A stretch of 64,000 bases of DNA from a virus (taxonomy: Duplodnaviria; Heunggongvirae; Uroviricota; Caudoviricetes). Below are positions 1 through 13,575 of the stretch, piece after piece (the first letter of the stretch is position 1; each line of letters opens with the position of its first letter). Below the pieces are notes generated by a model. That model had not been told where the DNA came from, did not search any database, and saw only the letters and a list, made by a program, of their open reading frames with translations. The position numbers and the translations under genes are program-made. The stretch is taken from the IMG/VR virus record IMGVR_UViG_3300002220_000285; one strand, written 5' to 3'.

Positions 1-2
1 AA

Positions 3-251
3 GGCAGCGCCGAAGGCAGCGCCAGCGCGATCAAGTTTTCGGAAGGTTTTGAACCGGAACGGCTGCTTTCGGTGGACACCGAAGGCGTCAAGGTTGTAGA
101 CGCGGAAAGCGTTATGGTGGCCATCATCCGCAAGGTTGGCGCCAAACGGGCCACCGCACTCCTGAAGCAAGTAGCGGCATGGGACGAATTCGTTAGTGCC
201 GAAGGCAAGCGCCGCGCCGAGCCTGCCGCCGCCGAACAGGCTGCAGCCTGA
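3..251 (+). CDS. hypothetical protein, 5'-truncated at window edge (C-terminal 82 aa: ...AEPAAAEQAAA*)
   Basis: Open frame from window start to TGA at 249-251; GC-rich codon usage like neighbours; function unknown. Confidence 0.45.
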   Translation, partial: GSAEGSASAIKFSEGFEPERLLSVDTEGVKVVDAESVMVAIIRKVGAKRATALLKQVAAWDEFVSAEGKRRAEPAAAEQAAA

Positions 252-266
252 CCCTAACAGGTTAGG
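252..266. repeat. variant copy of intergenic palindrome (CCTAAC-AG-GTTAGG)
   Basis: Immediately after stop of upstream CDS; 6-bp arms; followed by GGACGGGG-ACAA-CCCCGTCC hairpin. Confidence 0.5.
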
Positions 267-284
267 ACGGGGACAACCCCGTCC
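265..284 (+). terminator. GC-rich hairpin GGACGGGG-ACAA-CCCCGTCC (terminator-like, no U-run)
   Basis: 8-bp perfect stem, 4-nt loop, downstream of CDS ending at 251; member of GGACGGGGAC hairpin family also at 2561 and 31329. Confidence 0.35.
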
Positions 285-526
285 TAGCCTGTCTTACCTT
301 CCGCGAGTGCATTGGATAGCCTTCGGGCTATCTACTGTGTTTGCCGTGCCTGGAAACGAACGGCGGCGCCCTAAAAAGGCCGCTGGGAATCGCCTTCAGT
401 CTGGCTTCACCTGTTCTTTAACAATTTGGCTGATCTGTTCATCTATTTGGGGCCGAGCATCCCCTATAGATTTTGGCCCGGCTCGAGTCAGGGGAAATTT
501 CGTCCTGACTCAGAACCGAACCGAAT

Positions 527-541
527 CCCTAACCGTTAGGG
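527..541. repeat. intergenic palindrome CCCTAACCGTTAGGG
   Basis: Exact 15-mer, 7-bp inverted arms around central C. Confidence 0.6.
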
Positions 542-799
542 AAACAGATGACGGGCAGTTAGCTGCCCGCGGATGCAAAACTACCGTTTAGCGAGCCTCG
601 TGAGAGTCCGGGGCCGCTGTCGAGGAGAGGGCCGGGGACAACCCCGCACCTTACCCCTTCGATTCCTGCAGTAACGGGGAGAACGGCACGGGCCTAAGGC
701 TCGATGCAAGCCGCGGGAATCTACTGTCGGGGGCGATCCTGAGTGACGCTGCAAGCGAAGCCCCAACCCCTGTCCCATGCCCGGATTGGCAACCCGAAG

Positions 800-866
800 G
801 CAGGGGACGGGGATGACAAGCCCTGTGCAAGGTCCCTTGTGCAAGTGAGTCATCCCCGTCCCCTGC
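800..866. repeat. 18-bp perfect inverted repeat GCAGGGGACGGGGATGAC / GTCATCCCCGTCCCCTGC with 31-nt spacer
   Basis: Arms at 800-817 and 849-866 are exact reverse complements; followed by pyrimidine/T-rich tract CTTTGCTCTTACCCCTCTTTATCCTTATTGTT. Confidence 0.7.
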
Positions 867-879
867 CTTTGCTCTTACC

Positions 880-1320
880 CCTCTTTATCCTTATTGTTAA
901 ACGGTAGAAAACTTTAATAAAAAAAGGACTGTTTTTGTTTTTTCGCAAACGCGAAAATCCGCCTTTTCGCAAAAACGAAAACAAGCCGCCAGAAGTTAGA
1001 GGATAACAACTGGTCATTTGTTAAACCTTTTCGTTAAACGCCGAAACCCGCGCCAGTATTGGCTCTCCGCCTTATCGTACTGGAGTAACATCGCCGTTTA
1101 ACAGTTAAACGCCGTTTTTGTCCGCTAATTGCCCAATTAAGAGGCAAATCTGCTGCACTGCAACAGCCGTGCGACCTTGCCTAACCGACTTGAATTCGGT
1201 CTCAAACTCGATTTTGGTTTCACTTCTGGTCCTGTAAGAAACCCTTATCTGCCAGAGACCGTATCAGGGTGAAACGCCTGTTTTCCCTTGTTCGTGATGT
1301 TTAACGAACGCCACTTGAGG
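880..1320. promoter_or_regulatory. AT-rich regulatory island (candidate early promoter/operator cluster or origin) with TTTTCG-N6-8-CGAAAA and CGTTTAAC-A-GTTAAACG inverted repeats
   Basis: Local AT content far above the ~60% GC genome; TTTTCGCAAACGCGAAAA (939-956), TTTTCGCAAAAACGAAAA (964-981), TTTTCGTTAAACGCCGAAA (1028-1046), CGTTTAACAGTTAAACG (1095-1111); no ORF; precedes first early gene. Confidence 0.4.
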
Positions 1321-1330
1321 AGTACCTCCC

Positions 1331-1591
1331 ATGTTCCGCACCGGCCGCACCCGTCGCACCCTCCAGCCCCGCGCCTTCGTTTGCTACTGGGATTTCCAGG
1401 GCACGACTGTCGCCAACCGCACAACGACCCTTGCATCGGCTCGCAAACAAGCCGACCGCCGCCCGATGGGGTACGTGGTGGACACCCGAACCCATCGGAC
1501 CGTCTACCTCTCGGACTCCGCCCGCTCGCGCCTTGCTCGGCGCCTGGGAACCGGGATGGATTCCGTGAACGCCCTGCTGGCCCTTGCCTGA
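1331..1591 (+). CDS. hypothetical early protein (86 aa, basic, Arg-rich)
   Basis: ORF with GAGGAG SD 7 nt upstream; stop abuts palindrome at 1593. Confidence 0.6.
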   Translation: MFRTGRTRRTLQPRAFVCYWDFQGTTVANRTTTLASARKQADRRPMGYVVDTRTHRTVYLSDSARSRLARRLGTGMDSVNALLALA

Positions 1592-1592
1592 C

Positions 1593-1607
1593 CCCTAACC
1601 GTTAGGG
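1593..1607. repeat. intergenic palindrome CCCTAACCGTTAGGG
   Basis: Exact copy, followed by ATTGCCTCAGCGATCCCTGCACTACTTTTGGAGAGTCTC leader. Confidence 0.6.
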
Positions 1608-1648
1608 ATTGCCTCAGCGATCCCTGCACTACTTTTGGAGAGTCTCAA

Positions 1649-1828
1649 ATGGAAGTCGAAACCGCCCTGATGCTGTCCCCGCTGGAGCAGGCCGTGCTGA
1701 AGCAGGCCCTGCTCGTTCAGCGCAGCAACCTCTCCGCCGTCCTGGATTCGCTGGACAGTCGCAACTGCTTCCGCTCCTCGCTGAAACAGGAACTCGAGGT
1801 GGTGCGCGCCTTGCTGGAGCGCGTGTGA
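1649..1828 (+). CDS. hypothetical small protein (59 aa; below ORF-track cutoff)
   Basis: ATG 7 nt after CTACTTTTGGAGAGTCTCAA leader; uninterrupted frame checked codon by codon; TGA overlaps next ATG (TGATG). Confidence 0.55.
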   Translation: MEVETALMLSPLEQAVLKQALLVQRSNLSAVLDSLDSRNCFRSSLKQELEVVRALLERV

Positions 1829-2016
1829 TGGAAGACGCCCCCGTGATGATGCTGCACCTGACGGACGCACAAGCAAACCTGATTGGGTTTGCCTTGCGCG
1901 CCCTGATTCGATCGCACAGCGTGGAAATCTCCAAACTCTCGAATGCCGAGGAGATCAAGGCGCTCGCCCACGAGATCGCCGAAGCCGACGTTCTGCTTCG
2001 GGAGATTTACGAGTGA
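1828..2016 (+). CDS. hypothetical small protein (62 aa)
   Basis: Internal ATG of track ORF 1609..2016 chosen because of TGATG coupling with upstream gene. Confidence 0.55.
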   Translation: MEDAPVMMLHLTDAQANLIGFALRALIRSHSVEISKLSNAEEIKALAHEIAEADVLLREIYE

Positions 2017-2135
2017 TGTCGATGACGACTGCCTACGTTCTCGGTTCGACCTTGTTTCTGGTCTGGCTTCCGATCTACCTCCTGTTCCGGGACGGGGACG
2101 ACTTCGTCCCCTCCGACGACAACGACAACCCCTAA
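2016..2135 (+). CDS. small hydrophobic membrane peptide (39 aa, MSMTTAYVLGSTLFLVWLPIYLLF...)
   Basis: TGATG-coupled start; single predicted TM helix; TAA stop lies inside the palindrome at 2130-2144. Confidence 0.5.
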   Translation: MSMTTAYVLGSTLFLVWLPIYLLFRDGDDFVPSDDNDNP

Positions 2136-2144
2136 CCGTTAGGG
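2130..2144. repeat. intergenic palindrome CCCTAACCGTTAGGG
   Basis: Exact copy containing TAA stop of upstream peptide gene; followed by CTCTACTTCTGGAGAGTCTC leader. Confidence 0.6.
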
Positions 2145-2183
2145 GTCGCAGCGGCGATCCCTGCTCTACTTCTGGAGAGTCTC

Positions 2184-2285
2184 ATGCAGAACCTGGAATT
2201 CGTTTGGCCCCTCATTCTGGTGGTGGGTGGGGTGTTTCTGCTCGCGCTGATCGCGCTGATGGCTGGCGCCAATGGAAGGGACTGA
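2184..2285 (+). CDS. small hydrophobic membrane peptide (33 aa, MQNLEFVWPLILVVGGVFLLALIALMAG...)
   Basis: ATG 6 nt after GGAGAGTCTC; one TM helix; frame verified. Confidence 0.5.
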   Translation: MQNLEFVWPLILVVGGVFLLALIALMAGANGRD

Positions 2286-2287
2286 CA

Positions 2288-2557
2288 ATGGAACTGATTA
2301 CGCTGGCGAAGGTGTTCTGCGCCCTCGTGCGCCTCGCCGCCTCTCAAGCTGGAGTGGATGCTGCGGATACCGACCCGGACGACTACTGCGACTCCAACCT
2401 GGTGATGGCTGCCGCCTTTACCGCGGTCATGGGGCGTCCCCCCGTGCTGCCTTCCGAGGTGGAGGCCGATCCCCACCTTGCCCAGCAGGAGGACTCGGAC
2501 CTCGCCCTGTGGAACGGCGCCTACGGTATGTCTAGGTACTGCCTGTATCAACTGTGA
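2288..2557 (+). CDS. hypothetical protein (89 aa)
   Basis: Internal ATG of track ORF 1943..2557 directly after upstream TGA. Confidence 0.5.
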   Translation: MELITLAKVFCALVRLAASQAGVDAADTDPDDYCDSNLVMAAAFTAVMGRPPVLPSEVEADPHLAQQEDSDLALWNGAYGMSRYCLYQL

Positions 2558-2560
2558 CCC

Positions 2561-2598
2561 GGACGGGGACGACCGCTCACCCGCTGTCGTCCCCGTCC
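2561..2598 (+). terminator. GC-rich hairpin GGACGGGGACGA...TCGTCCCCGTCC (12-bp stem) fused to palindrome
   Basis: Perfect 12-bp inverted arms 2561-2572 / 2587-2598 right after stop of 2288..2557; no U-run. Confidence 0.4.
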
Positions 2599-2611
2599 CT
2601 AACCGTTAGGG
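2597..2611. repeat. intergenic palindrome CCCTAACCGTTAGGG
   Basis: Exact copy. Confidence 0.6.
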
Positions 2612-2625
2612 ATTGCCTCAGCGAT

Positions 2626-2638
2626 CCCTAACCGTTAG
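2626..2638. repeat. degenerate half-copy CCCTAACCGTTAG(cc)
   Basis: Second tandem copy 15 nt after previous one, right arm mutated. Confidence 0.4.
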
Positions 2639-2660
2639 CCCCTTACCTATGGAGTACCTC

Positions 2661-3332
2661 ATGAACGACCTGACCCGCAACATCGCCGCCGCCCGCATCC
2701 TCATGTTCGGGGGCCACCGCGCCGTCTCCAAGGACACGCTGGCCGCGGCGCTGGCGAGCGTCGATCCCGACACCTTCTTCGAGGTCGTCCAGCGGTACGT
2801 GAACGATTACGAAACCAATCAGGAACCCGATCAGGAACCCGTCCCGAAGGAGTCGAATTCCGATTCCGATTGCGGCCCCGTCCCCGTCCCCGCCAGGCGT
2901 TATTCGCTGACGTCCCCGCCGCCGTCCCCGTTCGATGGGGAGGAGGCGCTCAAGGAGTTTAACTTCCGCCTTCAGGATGAGCTTTTGGAGCGGGTGACGG
3001 GGGACAACCTCGCCCAGTCCTATGTCGCCTTGCTGCACGCCAACACGGCTGTCTTCTGCATGGGGGTGCGCGCTCACTTCGCCGATCTTACGGTGACGGA
3101 AGCTCTCGAGCTGTTCAAACTCCTCACCTCCACCTTGCCAGACTGGATGCTGGGGGATTCCGCTTACGCCCCTGCACGCCTCAGTCATGAGGAGCAGGGG
3201 GAATGGGCGAAGTCCTTCCGTAACCTCGAGATTCTGGAGTCGTACATCAGCTTCTTGATGACGACGGAGATCGGTTACTGGAGGAGTATGTCCGATATGC
3301 GCAGCTACTGCAGGTTCTTGTTCGAGGACTGA
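2661..3332 (+). CDS. hypothetical protein (223 aa)
   Basis: ATG preceded by GGAG; track ORF 2613..3332 same frame. Confidence 0.6.
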   Translation: MNDLTRNIAAARILMFGGHRAVSKDTLAAALASVDPDTFFEVVQRYVNDYETNQEPDQEPVPKESNSDSDCGPVPVPARRYSLTSPPPSPFDGEEALKEFNFRLQDELLERVTGDNLAQSYVALLHANTAVFCMGVRAHFADLTVTEALELFKLLTSTLPDWMLGDSAYAPARLSHEEQGEWAKSFRNLEILESYISFLMTTEIGYWRSMSDMRSYCRFLFED

Positions 3333-3358
3333 AGCAGGAGCAGGGGACGCCTGGCGTC

Positions 3359-3373
3359 CCCTAACCGTTAGGG
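3359..3373. repeat. intergenic palindrome CCCTAACCGTTAGGG
   Basis: Exact copy, followed by CCTACTTTTGGAGG leader. Confidence 0.6.
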
Positions 3374-3394
3374 AACCTACTTTTGGAGGTGAAG

Positions 3395-4219
3395 ATGAAA
3401 TACGAACTGATCCCGGAAGGCGACCTGTTCAGGCTGCGCGCCTTGAAAGCCTTTGGGGATGTGCGGGAAGGGGAGCTGGGAGGCCTTGTTCAGGGGCCTG
3501 AGAACCTCTCACAAGAGGGCCTGTGCTGGGTCGCCGGGAACGCTCGCGTCTACGGGGACGCTCGCGTCTACGGGGACGCTCGCATCTACGGGAACGCTCG
3601 GGTCTACGGGGGCGCTGAGGTCTCCGGGAGCGCTCAGGTCTACGGGGGCGCTCGGGTCTTCGGGAACACTGAGGTCTCCGGGAGCGCTCAGGTCTTCGGG
3701 AACACTGAGGTCTCCGGGAGCGCTCGCGTCTCCGGGAGCGCTAGGGTCTACGGGAACGCTCGCGTCTCCGGGAGCGCTCGGGTCTACGGGAGCGCTCGGG
3801 TCTACGGAAACTCTCGAGTCTACGGAAACTCTGACGTCTCCTGGTGCGCTTGCGTCTACGGGGACGCTAAGGTCTACGGGGACGCTCTCGTCAACGGTAA
3901 CGCTTGCGTCTCCGGGGACGCTTGCGTCTCCGTAGACGCTCATGTCTACGGGGACGCTCGGGTCTGCGGGAGCGCTCTGGTCTGCGGAAGAGACTTCCTG
4001 CTAGTCGGCCCGCTCGGCTCGCGCTCCTCCACGCTCACGATTACCCGCAACAGTGAGGGTACTCTGCTGTTTTCCACTGGATGCTTCCACGGCACCCTCG
4101 ACGAATTCGTCGCCGCCGTGAAAGAAGAGCACGAAGGTAACCAACACGAATTCGATTACCTCGCCGCGGTTGATCTGGCTAGGGTTATTTCTAGAAGTTG
4201 GCCCAACCCTAACCGTTAG
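3395..4219 (+). CDS. beta-helical hexapeptide-repeat protein (~25 repeats A-R-V-Y-G-[DNGS]; bactofilin-like V-x-G periodicity)
   Basis: Protein is ~25 consecutive 6-aa repeats (ARVYGD, ARIYGN, AEVSGS, AQVFGN...) flanked by non-repeat N- and C-terminal domains; encoded by 18-bp DNA tandem repeats. Confidence 0.7.
   Translation: MKYELIPEGDLFRLRALKAFGDVREGELGGLVQGPENLSQEGLCWVAGNARVYGDARVYGDARIYGNARVYGGAEVSGSAQVYGGARVFGNTEVSGSAQVFGNTEVSGSARVSGSARVYGNARVSGSARVYGSARVYGNSRVYGNSDVSWCACVYGDAKVYGDALVNGNACVSGDACVSVDAHVYGDARVCGSALVCGRDFLLVGPLGSRSSTLTITRNSEGTLLFSTGCFHGTLDEFVAAVKEEHEGNQHEFDYLAAVDLARVISRSWPNPNR
3532..3990. repeat. 18-bp tandem DNA repeat array (~25 units, consensus GGGGACGCTCGCGTCTAC) incl. 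an exact 36-bp duplication
   Basis: Visible periodicity; exact 36-mer GGGAACACTGAGGTCTCCGGGAGCGCTCAGGTCTTC occurs twice in tandem (~3662-3733). Confidence 0.8.
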
Positions 4220-4220
4220 G
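4207..4220. repeat. intergenic palindrome copy (CCCTAACCGTTAGG, one G short)
   Basis: Contains TAA stop of upstream gene. Confidence 0.5.
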
Positions 4221-4228
4221 AGTTTCTG

Positions 4229-4543
4229 ATGTACCTGTGTGAATTGATCGAGGCGCTCGAGAACGCGCCGCAAGACCTTGTCGTCCCCATCGGGTTTGCT
4301 GAGCCGCACAGCTACCGAGGCTACTACGAGGATTTGGAATTCACCCCTGCCATGAATGTGACCGTGGCCTCGATGCTTGCCCATGCGCGGTCCGCGTTGG
4401 GCGCGACGTTCTACGGCTACAAGGGCGGGGACTACAAGATGCACGAATACAGCCGCTGCTGGATCGGCGAGGCGGGGCTGGTGGAGGACCAATCGATCAG
4501 CCCGCTGCTGCTCAACTTCATGCTGGGCAACCCGGCCCTGTAG
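4229..4543 (+). CDS. hypothetical protein (104 aa)
   Basis: ATG after AGGAG SD. Confidence 0.6.
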   Translation: MYLCELIEALENAPQDLVVPIGFAEPHSYRGYYEDLEFTPAMNVTVASMLAHARSALGATFYGYKGGDYKMHEYSRCWIGEAGLVEDQSISPLLLNFMLGNPAL

Positions 4544-4558
4544 CCCTAACCATTAGGG
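4544..4558. repeat. intergenic palindrome variant CCCTAACCATTAGGG
   Basis: One-base variant. Confidence 0.5.
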
Positions 4559-4599
4559 ATTTGATCTGGACGGCCCCCACTACTTAAGGAGAACCTTTC

Positions 4600-5109
4600 A
4601 TGTCCGATTTCCAATTCGATACCAACCGCGAACCCTATGTCATCGTGGTCCCCTCGCACAACTACGGCTACGGTCACGTGTCGGCGCACTTCATGCTGCC
4701 CGACCCGAAGAACGGGTACTGGGATACCCGCATCGAGCTGGTGCTGCGTTGCCAGATCAACGGTGCCAGCTCCGATCATCGCCCCTTGAATCCCTACGCG
4801 GTTCGGTTCGAGGCTGAGGAGTTGAGGCTCAGGAACGTCAAGCGCCTTGCTCAGCTCGTCAACAAGCTGGAGAAGCTCCAGCCAGAACTCGAAGGGGAAG
4901 GGGACGACGGCACCGCCTTCTGGCTCACCCTGTTCACCGCGGCCCTGACGGCCTGGAAGGTGGATCACGTGTTCGTTCGGGAGTCGATTCGGGATTCCCG
5001 CGTCGTCCCGGACCTCCCGTATTTCACCAAGCTGAAGAATCCGGCAAACTCCCATGCCGCCCTCTCCTGCGTTGGGGAGGTGTTCAAGACGCTCTACAGG
5101 AGTATGTGA
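4600..5109 (+). CDS. hypothetical protein (169 aa)
   Basis: ATG after CTACTTAAGGAGAACC leader. Confidence 0.6.
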   Translation: MSDFQFDTNREPYVIVVPSHNYGYGHVSAHFMLPDPKNGYWDTRIELVLRCQINGASSDHRPLNPYAVRFEAEELRLRNVKRLAQLVNKLEKLQPELEGEGDDGTAFWLTLFTAALTAWKVDHVFVRESIRDSRVVPDLPYFTKLKNPANSHAALSCVGEVFKTLYRSM

Positions 5110-5471
5110 TGAAGCCAGAACCGAAGGATGTGATTCGCGCCTTGAACAAGGCTGCGAAGATGATCAGGGACGGGGACGTCATCTACATCTGTACCGCCCT
5201 CGACCATGTTCGCAAGTACCACCCGGAGCTGGCGCCTGCGGCGCTGTATTGCTGCAAGTGGGTCGATTCCATGCTGGGGAAAGGTCATACGCTGGAAATG
5301 TGGCTGAACGCCAATTGCGAGGACTATCGGGAAGCTGTCAGCAGCATCTCAATGCTCCCCTCAAGGTCTCCGCAGCTTCTGAGAGCGACCCAGAGAAGGT
5401 ACGACAAGGTGCAGCGCACCCGCCTTGCATGGATCGCGTGGATGAAGTCTGAGATCAAAACCAACCCCTAA
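5106..5471 (+). CDS. hypothetical protein (121 aa)
   Basis: ATGA overlap with upstream stop; TAA stop inside palindrome. Confidence 0.6.
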   Translation: MMKPEPKDVIRALNKAAKMIRDGDVIYICTALDHVRKYHPELAPAALYCCKWVDSMLGKGHTLEMWLNANCEDYREAVSSISMLPSRSPQLLRATQRRYDKVQRTRLAWIAWMKSEIKTNP

Positions 5472-5480
5472 CCGTTAGGG
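5466..5480. repeat. intergenic palindrome CCCTAACCGTTAGGG fused to GGGCTTCGGCCC tetraloop hairpin (5478-5489)
   Basis: Exact copy; its GGG arm forms the stem of a UUCG-loop hairpin. Confidence 0.6.
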
Positions 5481-5508
5481 CTTCGGCCCGTTACCTGAGG
5501 AGAAGTAC

Positions 5509-5916
5509 ATGCGTTGGTATCAACCTGGCGGCGACTACAGCCGCGATTACTGGCTGATTGATGATTCGGACCAGATCATCGCCCGAGTTCGTCACAACTT
5601 CGAGGGAACTTGGGCCTTCGGGGTTCGGGAGTTCCTGTCCGAGGAAGGCGCGAAGAAGGCGGCGATGCGCGCCAACGGCGCCACCTTGAAAGAGATTCTG
5701 GAAGTGTTCCCCCCGGAGGCTGCGCAGATGCCGGTTGGCGTCTGGCTTCCGTGGTCGGGCGGAAATCAGATTCCGGATGTACCGCCCGATCATCGGGTGG
5801 CGATCAGGTATCGGGGCGGTGAGGAAGGTGAACTCTCCTATGAGGGTGTTCCCCTTATGCGGTGGACCCACACAGAGACGACCGGGGACATCGTCGCCTA
5901 CAAGATCAACCCCTAA
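5509..5916 (+). CDS. hypothetical protein (135 aa)
   Basis: ATG after GAGGAG; TAA stop inside palindrome. Confidence 0.6.
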   Translation: MRWYQPGGDYSRDYWLIDDSDQIIARVRHNFEGTWAFGVREFLSEEGAKKAAMRANGATLKEILEVFPPEAAQMPVGVWLPWSGGNQIPDVPPDHRVAIRYRGGEEGELSYEGVPLMRWTHTETTGDIVAYKINP

Positions 5917-5925
5917 CCGTTAGGG
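5911..5925. repeat. intergenic palindrome CCCTAACCGTTAGGG
   Basis: Exact copy. Confidence 0.6.
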
Positions 5926-5932
5926 AATCAAC

Positions 5933-6406
5933 ATGACCGAAGAAGAAATGCGGGACGCTGACGTCCCGACGCTCGAGACCCTCGAGGAACTGACCGCCTA
6001 CATCTCAGAGCTGGTGAATCAGCCGCAGGACTACGGCACGTGCGTCTACGCGATGAGCATGGCCGCAACCGCGACGTTCAACTACGTTGCCCGAAATCTC
6101 GGGGTTACAGGATTCCAGGCCTCGTGTGCCGACATGGACATCCTTCGGCGCACTCGTGACCTCGAGGGTCCGTTCATGCTCGTCAAGGGCGAGAACCTTC
6201 TGTACCCGCAGTACGACATTCAGTCGAATGTTCAGGAATGGATCGGGAGCTGCACACCCTGGGCGGCGCAGGAGGCGAAGAAACTCCTTGCCAGCGCCAA
6301 CCCGGAAAACGTCGCGTACAACGTCTGGCGCCATTGGGAGAGGCTGGCCTCTGCAGGGGAGGAGCTGGACGCGCCTGAAACCTATGATCAAGGGGGTGGG
6401 GCGTGA
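5933..6406 (+). CDS. hypothetical protein (157 aa, acidic)
   Basis: ATG 8 nt after palindrome. Confidence 0.55.
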   Translation: MTEEEMRDADVPTLETLEELTAYISELVNQPQDYGTCVYAMSMAATATFNYVARNLGVTGFQASCADMDILRRTRDLEGPFMLVKGENLLYPQYDIQSNVQEWIGSCTPWAAQEAKKLLASANPENVAYNVWRHWERLASAGEELDAPETYDQGGGA

Positions 6407-7395
6407 CTAGTGAAGAACTGCGCGGACTGGCTCAGTGTATTGAAGACGGAAGCATCGGAAAAGGTGGGCGCATTGCGATTGCCCACCGGCTCCGCATCTA
6501 CGCCGATGCGCTGGATGCGGGGCCGGTGGCGTGGATGTATCCAGACGACTACGAGCGCATGGTGTCTGGCGAAACATTTTGCACCGTCTTCTCGGTGAAA
6601 GTGGGTAGCCCGACGCAGGGGACAACGACGGTTCAACTCTACCCGCACTGCATCCCGCCTGCGCCGCAACCTGTAAGCCACGCTGATGAGTTGGGGCCTG
6701 TCGCCGTGCGCTACGGGTGGGACGGCCACGGCTATCAGTACGCCGACAACGGCACGGGTAGCGACTGGCTGACGCGCCACGGTGACGCGGAGGCGCTCTA
6801 TCTCCACCCTCCAACGCTCCGACTTCCGGAGCCGATGGGCTACGCAGCGGGCATCGAGGCTGTAGCAGCGATGATCGAAGCGAAGGCGCAGTCGTTCGCC
6901 GGTCAGCATGGCTCAGACGACATGGGGAGCTTGTCGTTCGGGAGTGGCGACCACGCAGAGGCGAAGTCCGATTACTACAACTCGCTCGTTGAACTGGCGG
7001 AGGAGGTGCGGGCCATGCTCGACGCAGCCCCGACGCCATTTGTCGCCGAGAAGGCTCCCTATTCCGCCATCGTGGGTGATGGTGGCATGGACCCACGCAA
7101 CGCGCTCGACGAGTATCGCCACGCATCCGACCATTGCCTCGGCGCAGCGGAACAGGGCAAGGCCGATCAGGAATTGCTTGAGAAACTTCGCCGTCCCGCG
7201 CTCCGACTGCCGGAGCCGATGACGGATGGCGAGATGCTCGACGTGCTGATCGAGGCATCAAATGAGATGGCAGTCAATGCTGGCCACGACCCTGAATCGT
7301 TGAAGCTCGATCATGGAGCCATCCGGGACGGGCTTGTAGTGGGGCGGGCCATCGAATCAGCAATCCTGCGCCGAGTGAAGGAGGCGAACAAATGA
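6403..7395 (+). CDS. hypothetical protein (330 aa) with internal duplication (P[TA]LRLPEPM...IEA)
   Basis: GTG start overlapping upstream TGA (GTGA); repeated 20-aa segment at two positions. Confidence 0.55.
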   Translation: MTSEELRGLAQCIEDGSIGKGGRIAIAHRLRIYADALDAGPVAWMYPDDYERMVSGETFCTVFSVKVGSPTQGTTTVQLYPHCIPPAPQPVSHADELGPVAVRYGWDGHGYQYADNGTGSDWLTRHGDAEALYLHPPTLRLPEPMGYAAGIEAVAAMIEAKAQSFAGQHGSDDMGSLSFGSGDHAEAKSDYYNSLVELAEEVRAMLDAAPTPFVAEKAPYSAIVGDGGMDPRNALDEYRHASDHCLGAAEQGKADQELLEKLRRPALRLPEPMTDGEMLDVLIEASNEMAVNAGHDPESLKLDHGAIRDGLVVGRAIESAILRRVKEANK

Positions 7396-7694
7396 TGCGT
7401 GAGCGCCCCAAATTCAGCGACGAGGATTACATCGCATTCGACCCCTGCGAAGGGGACCGCGACGTAGACATCAAGTGTCGCACGGTCAAGCTCGTCGTCG
7501 CTCGCAAAGAGCATCCATGCTTCCTCGGCGAAGGCAGCTACGGCGACGGGCACACGATCAAACCGGGCAATCGCTACCGCTACGAGCGCGCGCTCGTGGA
7601 CAGCGACTACTGGGGGCAGTACCGCGTCTGCTTGCCGTGCATGGACAATTTCCTGAGTGGCTTGCGAGGGGAAGACGAGGAGGCGAACAAATGA
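7392..7694 (+). CDS. hypothetical Cys-containing protein (100 aa)
   Basis: ATGA overlap; several Cys/His residues (possible metal site). Confidence 0.5.
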   Translation: MMRERPKFSDEDYIAFDPCEGDRDVDIKCRTVKLVVARKEHPCFLGEGSYGDGHTIKPGNRYRYERALVDSDYWGQYRVCLPCMDNFLSGLRGEDEEANK

Positions 7695-8212
7695 AAATCC
7701 TCGAAGGATGGAAACTGGTGCCGGTGGAGGCTACCGACGAGATGCTGCACGACGCATCGGAAGTTGATCTAGCGGAGGAAACGCCGGAAGCCTACCAAGA
7801 GTACCTGCGCGCAATCCACCGTCGCTTAGTCGCATCCGCACCGACCCCGCCAGTGCAGCACTCGGACGATGTTGCCGTGGACAGGTTCGCGGCGGCGATG
7901 AAAGCGAAGCTGGCCCAGAAACGGGCCGAGGGCCGCGGCGGATGGGACGACCCCGAACAGTGCCCGGTCGAGCGGCTGGCGGAACTGCTGCACGAGCACG
8001 TCAGCAAGGGCGACCCTATCGACGTGGCGAATTTCGCAATGATGCTGTGGTGCCGAGGGGGCAGGACGACCCCGCCAGTGCAGCAGGACGACGAGGCGCT
8101 GGAGGTGCTGCGGGAGCTGGTTGCAGCTTGGGATTCCAACGGCAAGCTCCGCGAATTTGTTGACTCAGTGGGACGCGCCCGCGCCCTCATCGCAAAGCGA
8201 GGTGAGAAATGA
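7691..8212 (+). CDS. hypothetical protein (173 aa)
   Basis: ATG of MKILEGW... overlapping upstream stop (AAATGA); same frame as track ORF 7475..8212. Confidence 0.55.
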   Translation: MKILEGWKLVPVEATDEMLHDASEVDLAEETPEAYQEYLRAIHRRLVASAPTPPVQHSDDVAVDRFAAAMKAKLAQKRAEGRGGWDDPEQCPVERLAELLHEHVSKGDPIDVANFAMMLWCRGGRTTPPVQQDDEALEVLRELVAAWDSNGKLREFVDSVGRARALIAKRGEK

Positions 8213-8742
8213 CCGATGACCCCATCAGCCGCATCGAGGCGGCGCTGGAAGCCAATCCGACTCCGGGGCCGTGGCACTACAAAGAATGGGGCTCAGAAAT
8301 CGTCGACAGTGGAGTCGGATCGAGCCAACTGCTCATCGCCAAGGTTGCTGTGAATACCTTCAGGGACCAAGGGCGGCACAACGCCGACTTCATCGCCGCC
8401 TGCAACCCGACCGCCATCCGCACCCTGCTCGACCGACTCAAGGCTGCGGAGGCGGAGAACGAGCGGCTGCGCGCCGAGCTTGCCGAGTCACGCACGCCGA
8501 CGATGTTTTGGGACGCGGACGCTGGCAGTGAAGGCTATCTTGGCTTCACTTTGCAGGAGGCCGTCGAGGATGCGTGCGACTCGATGGGTCGGATGGATGA
8601 CCCGTATGAACTCGAAGTCTCATGCGCTCGCGCACTGCCCGGCATCAAGGTCCGCGCGTGGATCGACGATAAGGACAATCTGCAGTGGGATGAGGTCGAA
8701 GACGCCGCCATGCGCAAGGAGGGCGACGATGCCGATCTTTGA
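8209..8742 (+). CDS. hypothetical protein (177 aa), Ead/Ea22-like N-terminus (PGPWHY)
   Basis: ATGA overlap; N-terminal motif recalled from phage Ead/Ea22-like proteins; coiled-coil middle. Confidence 0.5.
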   Translation: MTDDPISRIEAALEANPTPGPWHYKEWGSEIVDSGVGSSQLLIAKVAVNTFRDQGRHNADFIAACNPTAIRTLLDRLKAAEAENERLRAELAESRTPTMFWDADAGSEGYLGFTLQEAVEDACDSMGRMDDPYELEVSCARALPGIKVRAWIDDKDNLQWDEVEDAAMRKEGDDADL

Positions 8743-8983
8743 AATCCAAATCGAAACCGTCGCGGTCGTCATTGCTGAAGATGCTGCCCACGCCGTCGAG
8801 ATCGTCTCTGATGAAATGCTCCAGATCGTTTCGGATGCGATCGGCTCGTCCCTCGAGGTCCACTCGGGAACCGAAATCGAAAGCCTCGACGAGCTGCCGA
8901 GAGGCTGGGACCCCATGTGCATTCCTTACGGCGGGGACGGGGACACCCGCCTCAAGGACCTCTTACCCGAAACCCAACCCTAA
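8729..8983 (+). CDS. hypothetical acidic protein (84 aa)
   Basis: ATG after AAGGAGG; internal start of track ORF 8480..8983; TAA in palindrome. Confidence 0.5.
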   Translation: MPIFEIQIETVAVVIAEDAAHAVEIVSDEMLQIVSDAIGSSLEVHSGTEIESLDELPRGWDPMCIPYGGDGDTRLKDLLPETQP

Positions 8984-8992
8984 CCGTTAGGG
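8978..8992. repeat. intergenic palindrome CCCTAACCGTTAGGG
   Basis: Exact copy. Confidence 0.6.
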
Positions 8993-9001
8993 AGGACTCC
9001 A

Positions 9002-9418
9002 ATGCTGCTCATCATCCGCGGCCTACCCGGTTCGGGTAAGTCGACGCTGGCTCGCGCCCTGTGCGAGGCAACCCCAGGAGCCAGACGCTACGAGGCTGAC
9101 GACTTCTTCTATAAGGAAGGCGAGTACCACTACGTCTCCTCCTACATCAAGCAGGCGCACAAGACCTGCCTCTACAACGTCAGGTACTCGCTGGAAAACC
9201 GGGCGCCGCTCGTCATCGTCTCCAACACCTTCCGCGAGGCGTGGGAAATGCGCCCGTATGCGGCCCTGGCTCGAGAACTCGAGGTCGATCTGCAACTGAT
9301 CGAGGTTCAGGGGAACTGGCCTTCGATTCACGCGCCGGATGAGGTTCGGCAACGGATGGCAGCCACCTGGCAGAAGGTGACGCTGACCGCGGACAAGCAC
9401 ATTCAACCGAGGAAATGA
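9002..9418 (+). CDS. P-loop NTPase / AAA_33-like kinase (possible polynucleotide or nucleotide kinase)
   Basis: Walker A GLPGSGKST at N-terminus, small single-domain protein. Confidence 0.6.
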   Translation: MLLIIRGLPGSGKSTLARALCEATPGARRYEADDFFYKEGEYHYVSSYIKQAHKTCLYNVRYSLENRAPLVIVSNTFREAWEMRPYAALARELEVDLQLIEVQGNWPSIHAPDEVRQRMAATWQKVTLTADKHIQPRK

Positions 9419-9419
9419 C

Positions 9420-9728
9420 ATGAGCCTAGTTCATCGGCAGTTTCTGTCCTACCCACACCACGACTTGCCTGCGATCCCCGTGGGCTGGGTGGACGATTCA
9501 TGGCACAACGACCACTGCCCGAGCTGGATCGTCGGGGAGTACCGCGACGATCTGGTCAAGGTCTACATCGACTGGCCTGAAGTGGAGGCTCGCTTGTCAC
9601 CCAGCGCCATGCGTTATTCAGTCGTGCTCGACTACAACTCTGGTGACGGGGTCTGGGAGGAGTTTGAAACCTTCGCGGAGGTGCGTGACTACCTGAAACA
9701 GTTCGACATCACCCCGTATTACCCCTAA
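9420..9728 (+). CDS. hypothetical protein (102 aa)
   Basis: ATG 2 nt after upstream stop; TAA stop in palindrome variant. Confidence 0.55.
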   Translation: MSLVHRQFLSYPHHDLPAIPVGWVDDSWHNDHCPSWIVGEYRDDLVKVYIDWPEVEARLSPSAMRYSVVLDYNSGDGVWEEFETFAEVRDYLKQFDITPYYP

Positions 9729-9737
9729 CAGTTAGGG
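9723..9737. repeat. intergenic palindrome variant CCCTAACAGTTAGGG
   Basis: Centre base changed. Confidence 0.5.
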
Positions 9738-9750
9738 ACCACTTCTGGAG

Positions 9751-10041
9751 ATGCCCGTGTTTGAGAAGCTGATGATTGTGTCGAGCAGTCACGTGACCAG
9801 CAATACCGCGGAGTGGATGGACACCAAGATCGGCGGAATGACGCTGCCAGGTGCCCCGTTCAAAGAGGAAGGTTGGATCGTCGACCTCTCGGAGTTGGCA
9901 GACAAGTCTGACCTGCCGCACTGCCTTGCCCAGCTTGTCGATATCGCCCGAGCCGGGGATGCCAGCTTCCTGTTCCTGAGTGAGTCAGGGTCCAGGTTGC
10001 CTGAACTGCCCGTGTACACGTGGGGCAAGAACTTTCCCTAA
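9751..10041 (+). CDS. hypothetical protein (96 aa)
   Basis: ATG after CTTCTGGAGATG leader. Confidence 0.55.
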   Translation: MPVFEKLMIVSSSHVTSNTAEWMDTKIGGMTLPGAPFKEEGWIVDLSELADKSDLPHCLAQLVDIARAGDASFLFLSESGSRLPELPVYTWGKNFP

Positions 10042-10050
10042 TGGTTAGGG
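10036..10050. repeat. intergenic palindrome variant CCCTAATGGTTAGGG
   Basis: Still a perfect palindrome with altered centre. Confidence 0.5.
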
Positions 10051-10072
10051 ATTCAACTTTTGGAGAGTGTCG

Positions 10073-10477
10073 ATGCAAATCGTTTCATGTGGGGGGCGCG
10101 AGCCTGACCTGATTGGGTTGTCGCTAAAGGAAGCTCACCAGCTCCGAGTGCTGGCTCAAGAGTTGCGTTCCAATCCACCCCCGCAAGGGGAGCGGACCAG
10201 GGAGCTCGGAGAGTGGCTCCACCTGCTGCTCGACTGTGCTGCACCGCTGTGCCTTGCTTCGACGCTGCAGTCTTATGTCGTGCTGTACCGGATCGAGAAG
10301 GAGATGTCCCCGCTTGATCCTCCGCAAGGGTTCCTATGCCAGGCGGAGGACGACGAGCACGCCGAAGAGCAGTGCGAGAACGCCTACCCGAACGCCGGGG
10401 TTCTTTGGGTGTTCGAGGGGGATTCCTACGACGATGCGCTGGATGATTATTACAACGCGACTGGGGAGGCCCTATGA
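10073..10477 (+). CDS. hypothetical acidic protein (134 aa)
   Basis: ATG 7 nt after GGAGAG; track ORF 10067 uses GTG. Confidence 0.55.
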   Translation: MQIVSCGGREPDLIGLSLKEAHQLRVLAQELRSNPPPQGERTRELGEWLHLLLDCAAPLCLASTLQSYVVLYRIEKEMSPLDPPQGFLCQAEDDEHAEEQCENAYPNAGVLWVFEGDSYDDALDDYYNATGEAL

Positions 10478-10932
10478 AAGTCAAAGTCGCTGAGGCCGAG
10501 GGCATCGTCCTCGACTGGCTGGTGGCGAAGTGCGAAGGGTTGACCCCAACGCTACATAAGAACCCATATGGCTATTGGGTGATGCCAAATATCCCTGGTA
10601 GTTACTCGACCGACTGGTCCCTCGGTGGGCCGATCATCGAGAAAGCCAACATCACCATTATCCGCGCAAACGATGAGTATGAGGTGGACGCAAAGGGGCT
10701 CTCCACCAGCAAGCCTATCCCCTGCTGGTTCGCTGAGTGCAGCCGTTGGACCGGGCACTCCCTGACCACCAGCTACGAAGGTGAGAGCATGGAACCAACC
10801 TTCATGATCGGGGAGTTGGATGGCTGTTACGGAGCCACCCCGCTCATCGCAGCCATGCGCTGCCTTTGTTGTAGTAAACTCGGCGATGTTGTAGACATTC
10901 CGGAGGAACTATGCCAGCAGCAAAGAAGTTAG
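10474..10932 (+). CDS. hypothetical protein (152 aa)
   Basis: ATGA overlap. Confidence 0.55.
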   Translation: MKVKVAEAEGIVLDWLVAKCEGLTPTLHKNPYGYWVMPNIPGSYSTDWSLGGPIIEKANITIIRANDEYEVDAKGLSTSKPIPCWFAECSRWTGHSLTTSYEGESMEPTFMIGELDGCYGATPLIAAMRCLCCSKLGDVVDIPEELCQQQRS

Positions 10933-11597
10933 ACGGTCAGGTGTTTGGACGCTTAACGGTGTTAAACCGCAGTGGGAATCTTGGTGGACGGGTCTTATGG
11001 TCATGCCAGTGCGCGTGTGGAAGATTGCATGAAGCAGTCAGTCATGCGCTTACGTCAGGGCATACAAAGTCCTGCGGCTGCTGGAAAGACGAGCGCAACA
11101 CCTCGACACCCTCAATTCACGGACACGCATCACGAGCTAAAGGTATTAGCCCTACCTACCGGACCTGGCAATGCATGATTACTCGCTGCACTAATGTGTC
11201 TGTTAAGTCATACAAAGACTATGGGGCGCGAGGCATATCTGTATATGCAGGTTGGCTAGTGTTTGAGAACTTTCTTGCCGACATGGGTGAGAAACCATCA
11301 GGCATGTCAATTGAGCGTATGGATAACGAAAAGGGCTACGGGCCGGATAACTGCAAGTGGGCCACCAAGATAGAACAGGCGCGAAATACTCGCGCTAACA
11401 AGTTCATCAGCTACAAAGGAAAACGCATGACACAAGCTGAATTCGCAGAGGTTATTGGACATAACCAATCAACAGTAAGTTATCGACTACGTTCCGGATG
11501 GACTCCTGAGCAAGTTGCTAACACACCTGCAAACCCAGGCAACCGTGTGGCCGACAAGCTGGGTGACGAGGTAGACGTCCCTGAGGAGCTGCTATGA
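10911..11597 (+). CDS. HNH-family homing endonuclease-like protein, paralogue 1 (N-terminal CxCxCG zinc motif, C-terminal ...GYGPDNCKWATKIEQARN)
   Basis: Shares FGRLTV / CxCxCG / YxxYGGRGI / NC[KRQ]WAT motifs with ORFs at 35644, 39595, 41748. Confidence 0.65.
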   Translation: MPAAKKLDGQVFGRLTVLNRSGNLGGRVLWSCQCACGRLHEAVSHALTSGHTKSCGCWKDERNTSTPSIHGHASRAKGISPTYRTWQCMITRCTNVSVKSYKDYGARGISVYAGWLVFENFLADMGEKPSGMSIERMDNEKGYGPDNCKWATKIEQARNTRANKFISYKGKRMTQAEFAEVIGHNQSTVSYRLRSGWTPEQVANTPANPGNRVADKLGDEVDVPEELL

Positions 11598-11872
11598 GTC
11601 CCTATGGAACGCTCACCGTCACCTACACCGCTCAGGTTTTTGTTCCCGGTGAGGTGTACGACGCTTTCTACTTCACTCGAGAATTCGGGCGTTTCGCTCG
11701 GAATGTCGCAAAGGACGCCAACAAATTCGGAGAGCTTCTCGACGAGGAGCCTAACGGGGTTCCTTCAGTCCAGTGGGCTGACTTCTTCGTGCGCCGAGAT
11801 GCTGAGGACTTCATCAACAACTGGCACAACCGCATCCTGCAATGGCAGGAAGAGTTGCGCTCAAGGCCCTAA
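11594..11872 (+). CDS. hypothetical protein (92 aa)
   Basis: ATGA overlap with HNH gene stop. Confidence 0.55.
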   Translation: MSPYGTLTVTYTAQVFVPGEVYDAFYFTREFGRFARNVAKDANKFGELLDEEPNGVPSVQWADFFVRRDAEDFINNWHNRILQWQEELRSRP

Positions 11873-11881
11873 CCGTTAGGG
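11867..11881. repeat. intergenic palindrome CCCTAACCGTTAGGG
   Basis: Exact copy; TAA of upstream gene inside. Confidence 0.6.
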
Positions 11882-11901
11882 CTTCTACTTCTGAGGTAGC
11901 T

Positions 11902-12174
11902 ATGACGAACCTTGAACTTCTCGCCCGCGCTGTTGTCGATCGCTGGGATAACGGGGACCTTGCCGAAGCTGTCCGAGAGCTGGCTTACGAAATTGCGAGG
12001 CAGGACGAACTTCGCAGCTCGTTTCAGCAAGAGATCACCCGCCTTCGCAACGCGGGGGAGGTCGAGCTTGATGACGAGCCGCTGATCTCTGAGGCCAACG
12101 AAGGCATCTGGGTTGGCACCTGGACTTGGATCGACCTTGAGAATGAGGAGAACAGTGATGGCGATGCGTATTGA
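11902..12174 (+). CDS. hypothetical acidic protein (90 aa)
   Basis: ATG after TCTACTTCTGAGGTAGCT leader. Confidence 0.5.
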   Translation: MTNLELLARAVVDRWDNGDLAEAVRELAYEIARQDELRSSFQQEITRLRNAGEVELDDEPLISEANEGIWVGTWTWIDLENEENSDGDAY

Positions 12175-12547
12175 CATCTTCGGGAGCTACGACCGTGAGC
12201 TTACTGAGGCGGAGGCCGATGCTTTTCAGAACCACCTCAGAACCTACTACTGCTACAGCTCGCCAACCGACGAGGTGACAGAGCGCTCCTTTTCCCTGCT
12301 CTACTGCTCTAACGACGACCTGCTCGCCTTGCAGATTGGCATCAATGATTGGTTGCCGCCTGACGTCACTGCCACTCTCGAGATTCACTATACCGAGTGC
12401 GAGGAGCCTGGAATCGAATTCGAGTTCCACGGCCCCAAGGACCTGATTCTTGAGTACGACTTCCTACAGGAGAAGATCGCGGACCTTGAGGAACAAAAAA
12501 TGAGAGTGCTCAGGCTTATTGCAGAACGGACGATCCCGATCGGCTGA
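12158..12547 (+). CDS. hypothetical protein (129 aa)
   Basis: ATG 7 nt after GAGGAG, overlaps upstream gene by 17 nt. Confidence 0.5.
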   Translation: MAMRIDIFGSYDRELTEAEADAFQNHLRTYYCYSSPTDEVTERSFSLLYCSNDDLLALQIGINDWLPPDVTATLEIHYTECEEPGIEFEFHGPKDLILEYDFLQEKIADLEEQKMRVLRLIAERTIPIG

Positions 12548-12548
12548 C

Positions 12549-12563
12549 CCCTAATCGTTAGGG
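12549..12563. repeat. intergenic palindrome variant CCCTAATCGTTAGGG
   Basis: One-base variant. Confidence 0.5.
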
Positions 12564-12583
12564 ACCTACTTTTGGAGAGGAAC

Positions 12584-12994
12584 ATGAAACCTTCTGGACA
12601 TGAATTCTGGCTGTGCCAGGACTGCGTGCAGGTTGCCGTCAACGGGGATTACAGCGGGATCGACTACTACGCGAAGAACGAAGCCGAAGCGAGTGACATC
12701 GTTCACCGCATTGACAAGGGTCTCGCGGCACTTGGTCCCAACCTTGTCCCGGACTTCTGGGACTCTAGCGAACCCCGCTACAGGTGTGAGGACTGCGACC
12801 ATGAGTTCGACCTGGCTGACGCACAGAGAGTCGAGGATGAGGACGGGTACATCTGTATCGCCTGCCCGGAATGCAAGAGCTTGGACACCAACGAGCGCGA
12901 CTATGGAGAGGAGGAGTTCTCCTACAGGGAATGCGACTGCTGCGGGGAAGACCTTGCTGGTTACCGCTTTCGATTCACAACCCTGATCCCCTAA
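12584..12994 (+). CDS. Cys-rich zinc-ribbon protein (136 aa; 4+ CxxC pairs)
   Basis: CQDC, CEDCDHEF, CIACPEC, CDCCGED motifs; ATG after CCTACTTTTGGAGAGG leader. Confidence 0.55.
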   Translation: MKPSGHEFWLCQDCVQVAVNGDYSGIDYYAKNEAEASDIVHRIDKGLAALGPNLVPDFWDSSEPRYRCEDCDHEFDLADAQRVEDEDGYICIACPECKSLDTNERDYGEEEFSYRECDCCGEDLAGYRFRFTTLIP

Positions 12995-13003
12995 CCGTTA
13001 GGG
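12989..13003. repeat. intergenic palindrome CCCTAACCGTTAGGG
   Basis: Exact copy. Confidence 0.6.
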
Positions 13004-13022
13004 ACTACTTGAGGAGAGCAGT

Positions 13023-13574: not shown

Positions 13575-13575
13575 C

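Follow-up and report, generated by a model that had tools for sequence, protein, structure and literature searches.

A conserved ribosomal-type boxA heads a probable long untranslated early leader, putatively protected by Nus factors, in an uncultivated siphophage lineage

The small early genes of an uncultivated temperate siphophage of ~80 kb are preceded by a 1.1-kb gap, which occupies positions 252–1330 of the 64,000-nucleotide stretch analysed here (IMG/VR virus record IMGVR_UViG_3300002220_000285; hereafter the window). We found that this gap carries a perfect copy of boxA, the antitermination element of ribosomal RNA (rRNA) operons, and that a boxA-like motif recurs at the equivalent place in related phages. 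We lean towards reading the gap as a structured early leader RNA that is protected by Nus factors through boxA and contains a conserved control module, made of a long hairpin followed by an A+T-rich island (Table 1).

The boxA at 413–423 is the sole perfect match in the window to GYTCTTTAANA, the consensus given by Baniulyte et al. 2017 (PMC5725501). The surrounding region is identical at 17 of 21 positions to the boxA region of the Escherichia coli rrn leader, and the E. coli sequence used for this comparison lies ~95 nt upstream of the 16S gene in 5426 of 5426 complete E. coli genomes. Relatives of the phage were gathered through their terminases and the equivalent gaps were compared. The motif that emerged from this comparison, [GC][CTA]TC[TA][CT]TNACAA, takes the form GTTCTTTAACAAT in the window (413–425). 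In the window phage and ten relatives (loci L021, L027, L030, L032, L034, L039, L044, L108, L111 and L113) it is found 1.85–3.25 kb upstream of the large terminase gene (TerL) and on the other strand. Across 90 terminase-anchored loci, eleven of the 19 motif matches fell within that zone, which makes up 9% of the searched sequence (binomial P = 1.5e-7). The terminases of the carriers are 38–65% identical to that of the window phage, and the sequence flanking the motif is not alignable among them. From this conserved and perfect rRNA-type boxA we infer that the region is transcribed rightward as untranslated RNA; NusB–NusE binding and Rho resistance are putative properties assigned to it from sequence. 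BoxA–Nus complexes are known to shield long untranslated RNAs, such as rRNA and CRISPR (clustered regularly interspaced short palindromic repeat) arrays, from Rho (PMC7665894).

Scans of IMG/VR for extended boxA strings returned 19 and more than 120 matches, none beside a 16S gene and one from this lineage; by our own estimate these counts are near chance for a collection of that size, and we drew no inference from them. Several unrelated viral contigs (L228, L244, L254 and others) hold two or three perfect extended boxA copies within 1–3 kb, which may be multiple N-utilization (nut)-like sites. Separately, tandem arrays stand directly 3' of boxA in L108 and L044, and in L032 two perfect DnaA boxes (TGTGGATAA) at 30–110 stand beside the boxA-like motif, upstream of the small terminase gene.

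The gap itself, described as non-coding in the first-pass annotation, proved real. No open reading frame (ORF) in 252–1330 reaches coding score with a codon-usage caller trained on the window, and ARAGORN detected no transfer RNA (tRNA) or transfer-messenger RNA in it. Searches of Rfam 15 with the window and seven relatives gave only spurious microRNA-hairpin matches far below the gathering scores. Hidden coding was ruled out by these codon-usage scores together with the absence of codon periodicity in a pair of relatives (L030 and L034, below). The relatives have an ORF-free gap of 0.6–1.9 kb at the same place and share its setting: small and large terminase genes on one strand and, on the other, a gene of ~200–260 amino acids, one or two hairpins, boxA, ~0.6–1.45 kb without ORFs and then small early genes. 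The ORF-free length after boxA is 918 nt in the window, 1267 nt in L108, 1287 nt in L111, 642 nt in L113, 1446 nt in L021, 1015 nt in L030 and 619 nt in L027. L111 has a single sigma-70-type promoter in this region (TTGACA-18-GACAAT, with TG upstream); boxA follows its end by 46 nt on the same strand, a spacing known from rrn and nut leaders.

Sequence conservation of the leader can be followed between L030 and L034, in which it is 78% identical over 615 nt and 91% identical over 65 nt, compared with 74.6% for the terminase–portal DNA; the upstream gene of ~200 amino acids is hardly alignable between the two. Leader mismatches are spread over the three codon phases (48/46/45) without 3-nt periodicity, and several hairpins stay paired through double substitutions (for example CCGTGG..CCACGG versus CCACAG..CTGTGG). 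With L039 added as a third sequence, RNAalifold found compensatory changes at 48 of 156 pairs. Because the leader is conserved like terminase DNA, with aperiodic mismatches and paired double changes, the alignments indicate selection, at least in the L030/L034 subgroup, on a structured nucleic acid, for which RNA is the simplest reading.

In the window, 252–900 fold far better than shuffled sequences (z = −6.9), with strong local hairpins at 257–292, 313–334, 441–471, 485–511, 552–569 and 633–646, in addition to the long hairpin at 795–872. The inverted repeat underlying the long hairpin had been reported as 18 bp (800–817/849–866); it is present and perfect, and only its length needed correction, to 21 nt per arm with 31 nt between the arms. 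As RNA, 795–872 forms a 23-bp outer helix with inner helices of 2 and 8 bp (−61 kcal/mol, z = −9.7 against 200 shuffles). The 8-bp inner helix consists of two copies of TGTGCAAG paired through two G–U pairs, an arrangement that works in RNA and not in DNA. The loop sequence TTGTGCAAGTG is common to this hairpin and that of L108, the closest relative, the stems being unrelated (L108 stem, CCTAAGTACATGGCA/TGTCATGTAGTTAGG); by our own estimate ~3e-4 matches of this kind, an 11-mer in a 1.4-kb leader, are expected by chance. Two copies of the heptamer GTGCAAG lie in the long-hairpin loop of the window; L108 also has two (one of them in its long-hairpin loop) and L111 has one (just 3' of the long hairpin), whereas the nine other leaders compared have none. 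A very stable long hairpin directly before the A+T island recurs in the window, L108, L111 and L021 (z from −4.3 to −9.7), and we therefore treat hairpin and island as a conserved module.

The stem core GGACGGGGA..TCCCCGTCC with a TTTGC tail is common to the long hairpin, the first hairpin of the leader (H1), a hairpin at 2561–2598 and a canonical terminator at 31329–31358, which argues for a terminator-like role of 795–872. The intrinsic-terminator scan did not list 795–872: its tail (TGCTCTTA) has only four T in eight positions and its arms are 31 nt apart. The L108 version is likewise without a U-rich tail. The hairpin has the geometry of a ribonuclease III (RNase III) substrate (about two turns, at least 20 bp, of near-perfect double-stranded RNA), as does that of the lambda N leader. 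It may be terminator-like or an RNase III-type substrate. The canonical terminator, AGGACGGGGACA-GAGA-TGTCCCCGTCCT followed by TCTTTGCG, lies directly before tRNA-Arg(TCT) (31361–31436), and its stem core recurs at 265–284, 797–869 and 2561–2598. Of the smaller hairpins, that at 361–385 is not conserved in relatives and folds no better than shuffles, and every relative has some hairpin at the place of 441–471, with unrelated sequences. The block at 621–648 is 89% identical over 28 nt to L111 4355–4328, at a similar distance after boxA.

A pyrimidine tract follows the inverted repeat, as previously described (TGCTCTTACCCCTCTTTATCCTTATTGTT, 870–900). It falls in the 78-nt segment with the top C/G ratio of the leader (850–927, 2.44), and in the window, L111 and L021 no part of the leader is richer in C and poorer in G than the start of the island (C/G 2.4–3.5); by composition, the tract could be a Rho-loading, or Rho-utilization (rut)-like, segment. 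GC content falls to 0.40 in 200-nt windows starting at 841–881, the lowest in the window, against a mean of 0.59 (standard deviation 0.04). Next come 0.455 (at 42.26 kb) and 0.465 (at 11.28 kb), both within coding sequence, in two paralogous genes; the island is therefore the only A+T-rich stretch among non-coding sequence, and the broader statement that it is the only one in the window does not hold. These paralogues (10911–11597 and 41727–42368; 40% identity, E = 9e-50) are without Pfam match and may be mobile, homing-endonuclease-like genes.

Three TTTTCG-N-CGAAAA palindromes had been described in the island. Two are good, TTTTCGCAAACGCGAAAA (940–957) and TTTTCGCAAAAACGAAAA (964–981), of 18 bp each and 24 nt apart from centre to centre, and the third, TTTTCG-TTAAACGC-CGAAAC (1028–1047), is degenerate; a further palindrome, CGTTTAAC-A-GTTAAACG (1095–1111), is present as stated and is a perfect 8+1+8 repeat. 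Six of the eight GTTAAAC sites of the window lie within 896–1305 (half-sites at 896, 1020, 1033, 1096, 1104 and 1299), and 5 of its 19 TTTTCG/CGAAAA sites lie within 940–1033. AACGAAA is common, on the same strand, to all four islands compared, and each related phage has its own short repeated motif or palindrome there. Repeated motifs that differ between the phages include GTTAAAC in the window, CCGATTC in L111 and CGGTWAC in L030. The exact palindrome CCCTAACCGTTAGGG found only single, unrelated matches in IMG/VR.

The TAAC-N-GTTA core of 1095–1111 is also the core of a palindrome that this phage repeats elsewhere. Sites of the type CCCTAAC-N-GTTAGGG are confined to the early region (window 528–17556), where they punctuate the early genes (for example 526–542, 1592–1608, 2129–2145, 2596–2612, 3360–3372, 4208–4220 and 17544–17556). 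Their core TAACNGTTA was observed 15 times against 0.13 expected, with C (13) or A (2) as the centre base on the coding strand. Copies lie on or just 3' of stop codons, their own TAA and TAG acting as stops, and three belong to a 57-nt module that also includes a second hairpin and the Shine–Dalgarno sequence of the following gene. Counterparts with a sequence of their own occur in L108 (AACTAGACGTCTAGT) and L111 (TTTAACCGTTAAA).

On the reading that we favour, 252–1330 would be a transcribed, untranslated and structured leader between p237, a gene for a 237-amino-acid protein, and the block of small early genes. The rRNA-operon-type boxA would appear early in the RNA and, while nascent, would bind host NusB–NusE (S10); together with NusA, NusG and possibly SuhB this would make RNA polymerase resistant to Rho. 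The modified polymerase could then cross ~0.9 kb of ribosome-free RNA and, beyond it, a hairpin-punctuated early operon. The 21-bp inverted repeat would act as a conserved RNA hairpin bordering the G+C-rich structured part, either terminator-like or cut by RNase III. The G-poor, A+T-rich segment with its phage-specific palindromes would be a control point, most likely a Rho-dependent attenuator and/or a group of sites bound by a phage regulator. The A+T island is better explained as a control point within a transcribed leader than as an operon start; it may hold operators, a Rho terminator or an origin, and may contain an additional, non-consensus promoter.

Several results weigh against this reading. 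The consensus GYTCTTTAANA is gamma-proteobacterial and may not be that of the host. Outside the motif, blastn, nhmmer and MAFFT align only short blocks of the window leader with those of relatives. The motif is merely degenerate in L121, was not found in L028 and is matched only partially in L048 (TCTCTTTACAT). In the RNAalifold consensus, the covariation term is ~0 and the third sequence cannot form many of the pairs, and what covariation there is comes from two or three sequences of another subgroup (L030, L034 and L039), not from the leader of the window. The minus strand of 252–900 gives an equally strong fold z-score, so stability alone cannot separate RNA structure from DNA palindromes. 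No sigma-70-type promoter was found on the plus strand of 251–1335, even at 8 of 12 matches; the same criteria succeed upstream of the terminase genes of this phage and 46 nt before boxA in L111. The two hairpins after p237 (H1 and H2) could stop read-through from upstream. The long hairpin has the stem core and TTTGC tail of the canonical terminator of the phage. Since complexes formed on rrn-type boxA are far more effective against Rho-dependent than against intrinsic termination, transcription from boxA onwards might stop at ~880.

The first-pass annotation had judged this the likely start of the early operon, with a promoter and operators. Part of this stands: the region is non-coding, appears regulatory and lies ahead of small early genes, and its palindromes would suit dimeric binders. 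The operon start itself probably does not. The stop codon of p237 directly precedes 252, p237 is on the same strand with its own A+T-rich upstream region, and the gap holds a conserved boxA without a sigma-70-type promoter. As p237 comes before 252 and has an A+T-rich region ahead of it, the early unit is likely to begin outside the window, on its upstream side. A doubtful version of the operon-start idea, which we nevertheless rank first among the alternatives, is that the inverted repeat terminates upstream transcription and that the island (880–1150) contains the true early promoter together with operators at which a dimeric phage regulator would act. Promoters are expected at an A+T island within a 59% GC genome. 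The spacing of the 940–957 and 964–981 palindromes, the perfect repeat at 1095–1111 and the clustered half-sites would suit operators, and the core shared by 1095–1111 and 14 CCCTAAC-N-GTTAGGG-type early sites means that one regulator family could bind both; the terminator core and tail of the inverted repeat would suit the upstream stop. Against it stand the lack of a recognisable promoter in a phage group that uses consensus promoters elsewhere, and the layout of L111, where the island lies 0.9–1.25 kb downstream of promoter and boxA, within the transcribed leader. The leaders of L030, L034 and L113 continue up to the first gene with no A+T island between, the L108 hairpin has no U-rich tail, and Pfam scans of 39 early and middle proteins revealed no repressor-like helix-turn-helix (HTH) protein, ParB/KorB or initiator. 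It is unlikely, in our judgement, that the region is instead a discrete non-coding RNA gene of ~460 nt, running from just before boxA to the 795–872 hairpin and acting in trans, with boxA protecting the RNA or helping it to fold. Such a gene would explain why a strongly predicted structure is flanked 5' by boxA and 3' by a terminator-like hairpin, and its equivalent in L030/L034 is conserved at or above the coding level with compensatory changes; that no Rfam family matched is compatible with it. It would need a promoter, of which none was recognised, and the hairpin has no proper U-tract in either the window or L108. The conserved RNA of the L030 group continues straight into the Shine–Dalgarno sequence of the first gene, which suggests a leader.

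A replication origin, in which the island is an unwinding element with initiator repeats adjoining the long hairpin and is activated by upstream transcription, is improbable. GC content is lower here than anywhere else in the window, cumulative GC skew reaches its minimum at ~2–3 kb, and the short motifs occur in both orientations and differ between related phages, as expected of initiator-specific sites. The skew minimum, though, coincides with the switch in transcription direction and the maximum (~57 kb) is not opposite. The iteron-like origin of the first-pass annotation keeps its A+T-rich feature and little else: the DnaA box TTATCCACA has no match, the repeats are half-sites of 7–8 nt or palindromes at irregular spacings (124, 13 and 71 nt) and not iterons of 17–22 bp, and no initiator gene is near, the primase, helicase and polymerase genes being 24–38 kb away. 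Least credible of all is a cohesive-end packaging site (cos) within 252–1330. The large terminase belongs to the lambda gpA family of cos-type enzymes, the region is 2.4 kb from the terminase and one short contig (L004) ends within the hairpin loop. The remaining contig ends are scattered (window 184, 347, 508 and 642), however, and the long contigs break within, or shortly beyond, a tandem array that precedes p237; p237 and this array stand between the region and the small terminase gene. In five relatives a different motif, GACGGGTACACTTTC, is conserved 100–250 nt ahead of the gene for the small terminase, which is the place of cos in lambda. A packaging-related site in the gap is accordingly unlikely. 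Conservation at this place, on the terminase strand, takes the form GAC-GGGTACACTTTC in the five otherwise diverged loci (L001 5966–5982, L113 4463, L120 33, L262 110 and L265 35) and marks a candidate cos or late-control element. The tandem array covers ~540 nt (L001 6003–6545), separates the terminase promoter from p237 and lies ~580–1125 nt to the left of the window start. It is built of 18–25-nt units (GGTCGGCTGGCCCCGGCCC...) and had been called a 264-amino-acid gene by an annotation pipeline. Assemblies break at the array (L002 and L003), and L110 begins in a similar one; contig starts near the small terminase gene were considered as physical genome ends and rejected, at least L002 and L110 being explained by tandem arrays.

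If the boxA-protected leader is what we favour it to be, phages beyond the lambdoid group exploit the ribosomal antitermination machinery of their host without a recognisable N protein, and the lineage offers a defined example of a structured phage leader of kilobase size that is conserved as closely as a terminase gene. BoxA-dependent antitermination is textbook knowledge for lambda and rRNA and has been studied in very few phages; here, a full rRNA-type boxA heads an unusually long, conserved and structured untranslated RNA in a lineage without a cultured member. A bolder idea, to which we give little credence, is that these leaders are a new class of large (0.5–1.4 kb) structured phage RNA, conserved across a broad uncultivated lineage of temperate siphophages, with a function of their own beyond that of a passive leader. 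The consensus boxA would then borrow the host rRNA antitermination and chaperone complex for both transcription and folding, and the RNA might, for example, titrate Nus factors or Rho, or be processed into a regulatory RNA in the lysis–lysogeny decision. For annotation, such gaps should not be called promoter regions, origins or cos sites from their looks alone.

Table 1 Features in and around the leader, in window coordinates.
Feature	Position	Strand	Basis or detail
3' end of p237 (237-amino-acid gene, first on rightward strand)	1..251	+	Start, A+T-rich upstream region and palindrome copy lie left of the window, L001 6560–6712
Hairpin H1, 16-bp stem, loop ACAA, directly 3' of p237 stop	257..292	+	Core GGACGGGGA..CCCCGTCC, also in the long inverted repeat and the terminator at 31329–31358
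Hairpin H2, UUCG tetraloop, weakly U-rich tail	313..334	+	Terminator-like in simple scan
7-bp hairpin, A-rich 11-nt loop GCCCUAAAAAG, 28 nt upstream of boxA	361..385	+	Fold
boxA GTTCTTTAACA(AT), putative NusB/NusE (S10) site on nascent RNA	413..425	+	Perfect consensus match
Hairpin 16 nt after extended boxA motif (413–425), 8-nt loop	441..471	+	Fold
Copy of the repeated palindrome of the phage, TCCCTAACCGTTAGGGA	526..542	+	Repeat search
GGCCGGGGACAACCCCGCACC block, hairpin CGGGG-ACAA-CCCCG	621..648	+	Match to L111
Long hairpin, 21-nt perfect arms 797–817 / 849–869	795..872	+	Inverted repeat and RNA fold
Pyrimidine-rich, G-poor tract	870..900	+	Within 850–927
A+T-rich island, GC ~0.40–0.42	880..1150	.	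Palindromes, GTTAAAC half-sites, AACGAAA
Proximal 5' untranslated region of first small early gene	1151..1330	+	GTTAAAC at 1299; Shine–Dalgarno GAGGAG 1317–1322
First small early gene, 86 amino acids, then repeated intergenic module	1331..1591	+	ORF

The window is part of a phage with a GpA-type terminase. Genes on the plus strand span 1.3–46 kb and include many small early ORFans; the strand also encodes ArdA, ligase, helicase, primase, a family-A DNA polymerase and SbcCD. An integrase follows this block, and lysis and tail genes lie on the minus strand. The same phage is found in 23 metagenome contigs at >99.5% identity, all with the same 86-amino-acid protein, and these near-identical copies have no comparative value. 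One of them (L001) reaches 7.1 kb further left than the window, and there carries, on the minus strand, a lambda gpA-type TerL, two small terminase-like genes and their consensus promoter. The closest cultured phages share merely 31% terminase identity. One relative (L121) was found inside a contig of a Methylotenera metagenome-assembled genome, and a terminase scan of 185,579 genomes found no prophage relative.

Upstream, the 5' untranslated region of p237 holds one CCCTAAC-N-GTTAGGG copy (L001 6680–6694). The gene encodes a tandem (SAEG)n repeat, within which the window begins (window 1–40; L002 234–947). A search for p237 homologues gave no matches, the SAEG repeat having probably saturated the word index. 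At the other end of the gap, the GAGGAG Shine–Dalgarno sequence can pair with CCUC at 1325–1328, before the ATG, and the resulting small hairpin (1317–1333) might gate translation. Further into the early region, 3383–4219 is a gene for a YdcK-type beta-solenoid or bactofilin-like repeat protein with a homologue in L030; its repeat DNA gives 65–73% matches to phages of Firmicutes and Proteobacteria.

Among known systems, the HK022 put RNA is likewise structured, belongs to the early leader of a temperate phage and acts on the polymerase during transcription, but put consists of two stem-loops in a compact arrangement and needs neither boxA nor Nus factors; Rfam detected no similarity to it. The dispersed palindrome recalls repressor sites that are scattered over phage and plasmid genomes, such as the conserved inverted repeats of phiC31, the stoperators of mycobacteriophage L5 and the KorB operators of RK2. 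As in those systems, a site of 13–17 bp is repeated 12–30 times in intergenic positions of the early region, and the KorB site (TTTAGCSGCTAAA) resembles the TAAC-N-GTTA core in form. Unlike those sites, the palindrome always has C or A as its centre base on the coding strand, and neither ParB/KorB nor an HTH repressor was found; such a centre base would suit a role that is directional or exerted on RNA, or propagation of the site through copies of the 57-nt module.

The nut regions of lambda (pR-cro-nutR-tR1 and pL-nutL-RNase III hairpin-N) are closer in arrangement. There, too, a temperate phage has boxA on its early transcript, after the first small gene and ahead of most early genes, and boxA is followed by a hairpin and then, as in an echo of nutR-tR1, by a G-poor stretch that could load Rho; the N leader also has a long double-stranded hairpin. 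The window boxA is the full rRNA consensus, whereas that of lambda is shortened (CGCTCTTA), and the window leader is 4–6 times longer and appears conserved and structured throughout. Set against the rrn model as well as nut, it stands out by its length of ~1 kb, its structure along this length and a conservation equal to that of coding sequence. No lambda-type boxB, with a 5-nt A-rich GNRA-like loop 3' of boxA, is conserved: the loop at 441–471 has 8 nt and the hairpins of relatives are unrelated. The sequence GGGGACAACC was considered as a P22-like boxB and rejected; it recurs in L111 and the L030 group in differing structural contexts. No N-like protein was recognised; the 86-amino-acid product has an arginine-rich N terminus (MFRTGRTRRTLQPR) without Pfam match, and BLASTP could not align it with the protein of the first early gene of L108. 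Nus-dependent phages outside the lambdoid group are known in the mEp021 group (PMC11893012).

BoxA is also used outside rRNA, upstream of CRISPR arrays and suhB (PMC7665894, PMC5725501). The window element has the same consensus and may likewise shield a long untranslated RNA from Rho or regulate a downstream gene; its genetic context differs, and it is conserved within a phage lineage. The rRNA leader (boxB-boxA-boxC, bound by the rrn antitermination complex, rrnTAC, of NusA/B/E/G, SuhB and S4) differs in that the window version, known here from its sequence, is phage-borne, has protein-coding early genes downstream and has no identified boxC. The two are alike in a near-identical boxA, in a hairpin that precedes it and in the long structured untranslated RNA that it heads.

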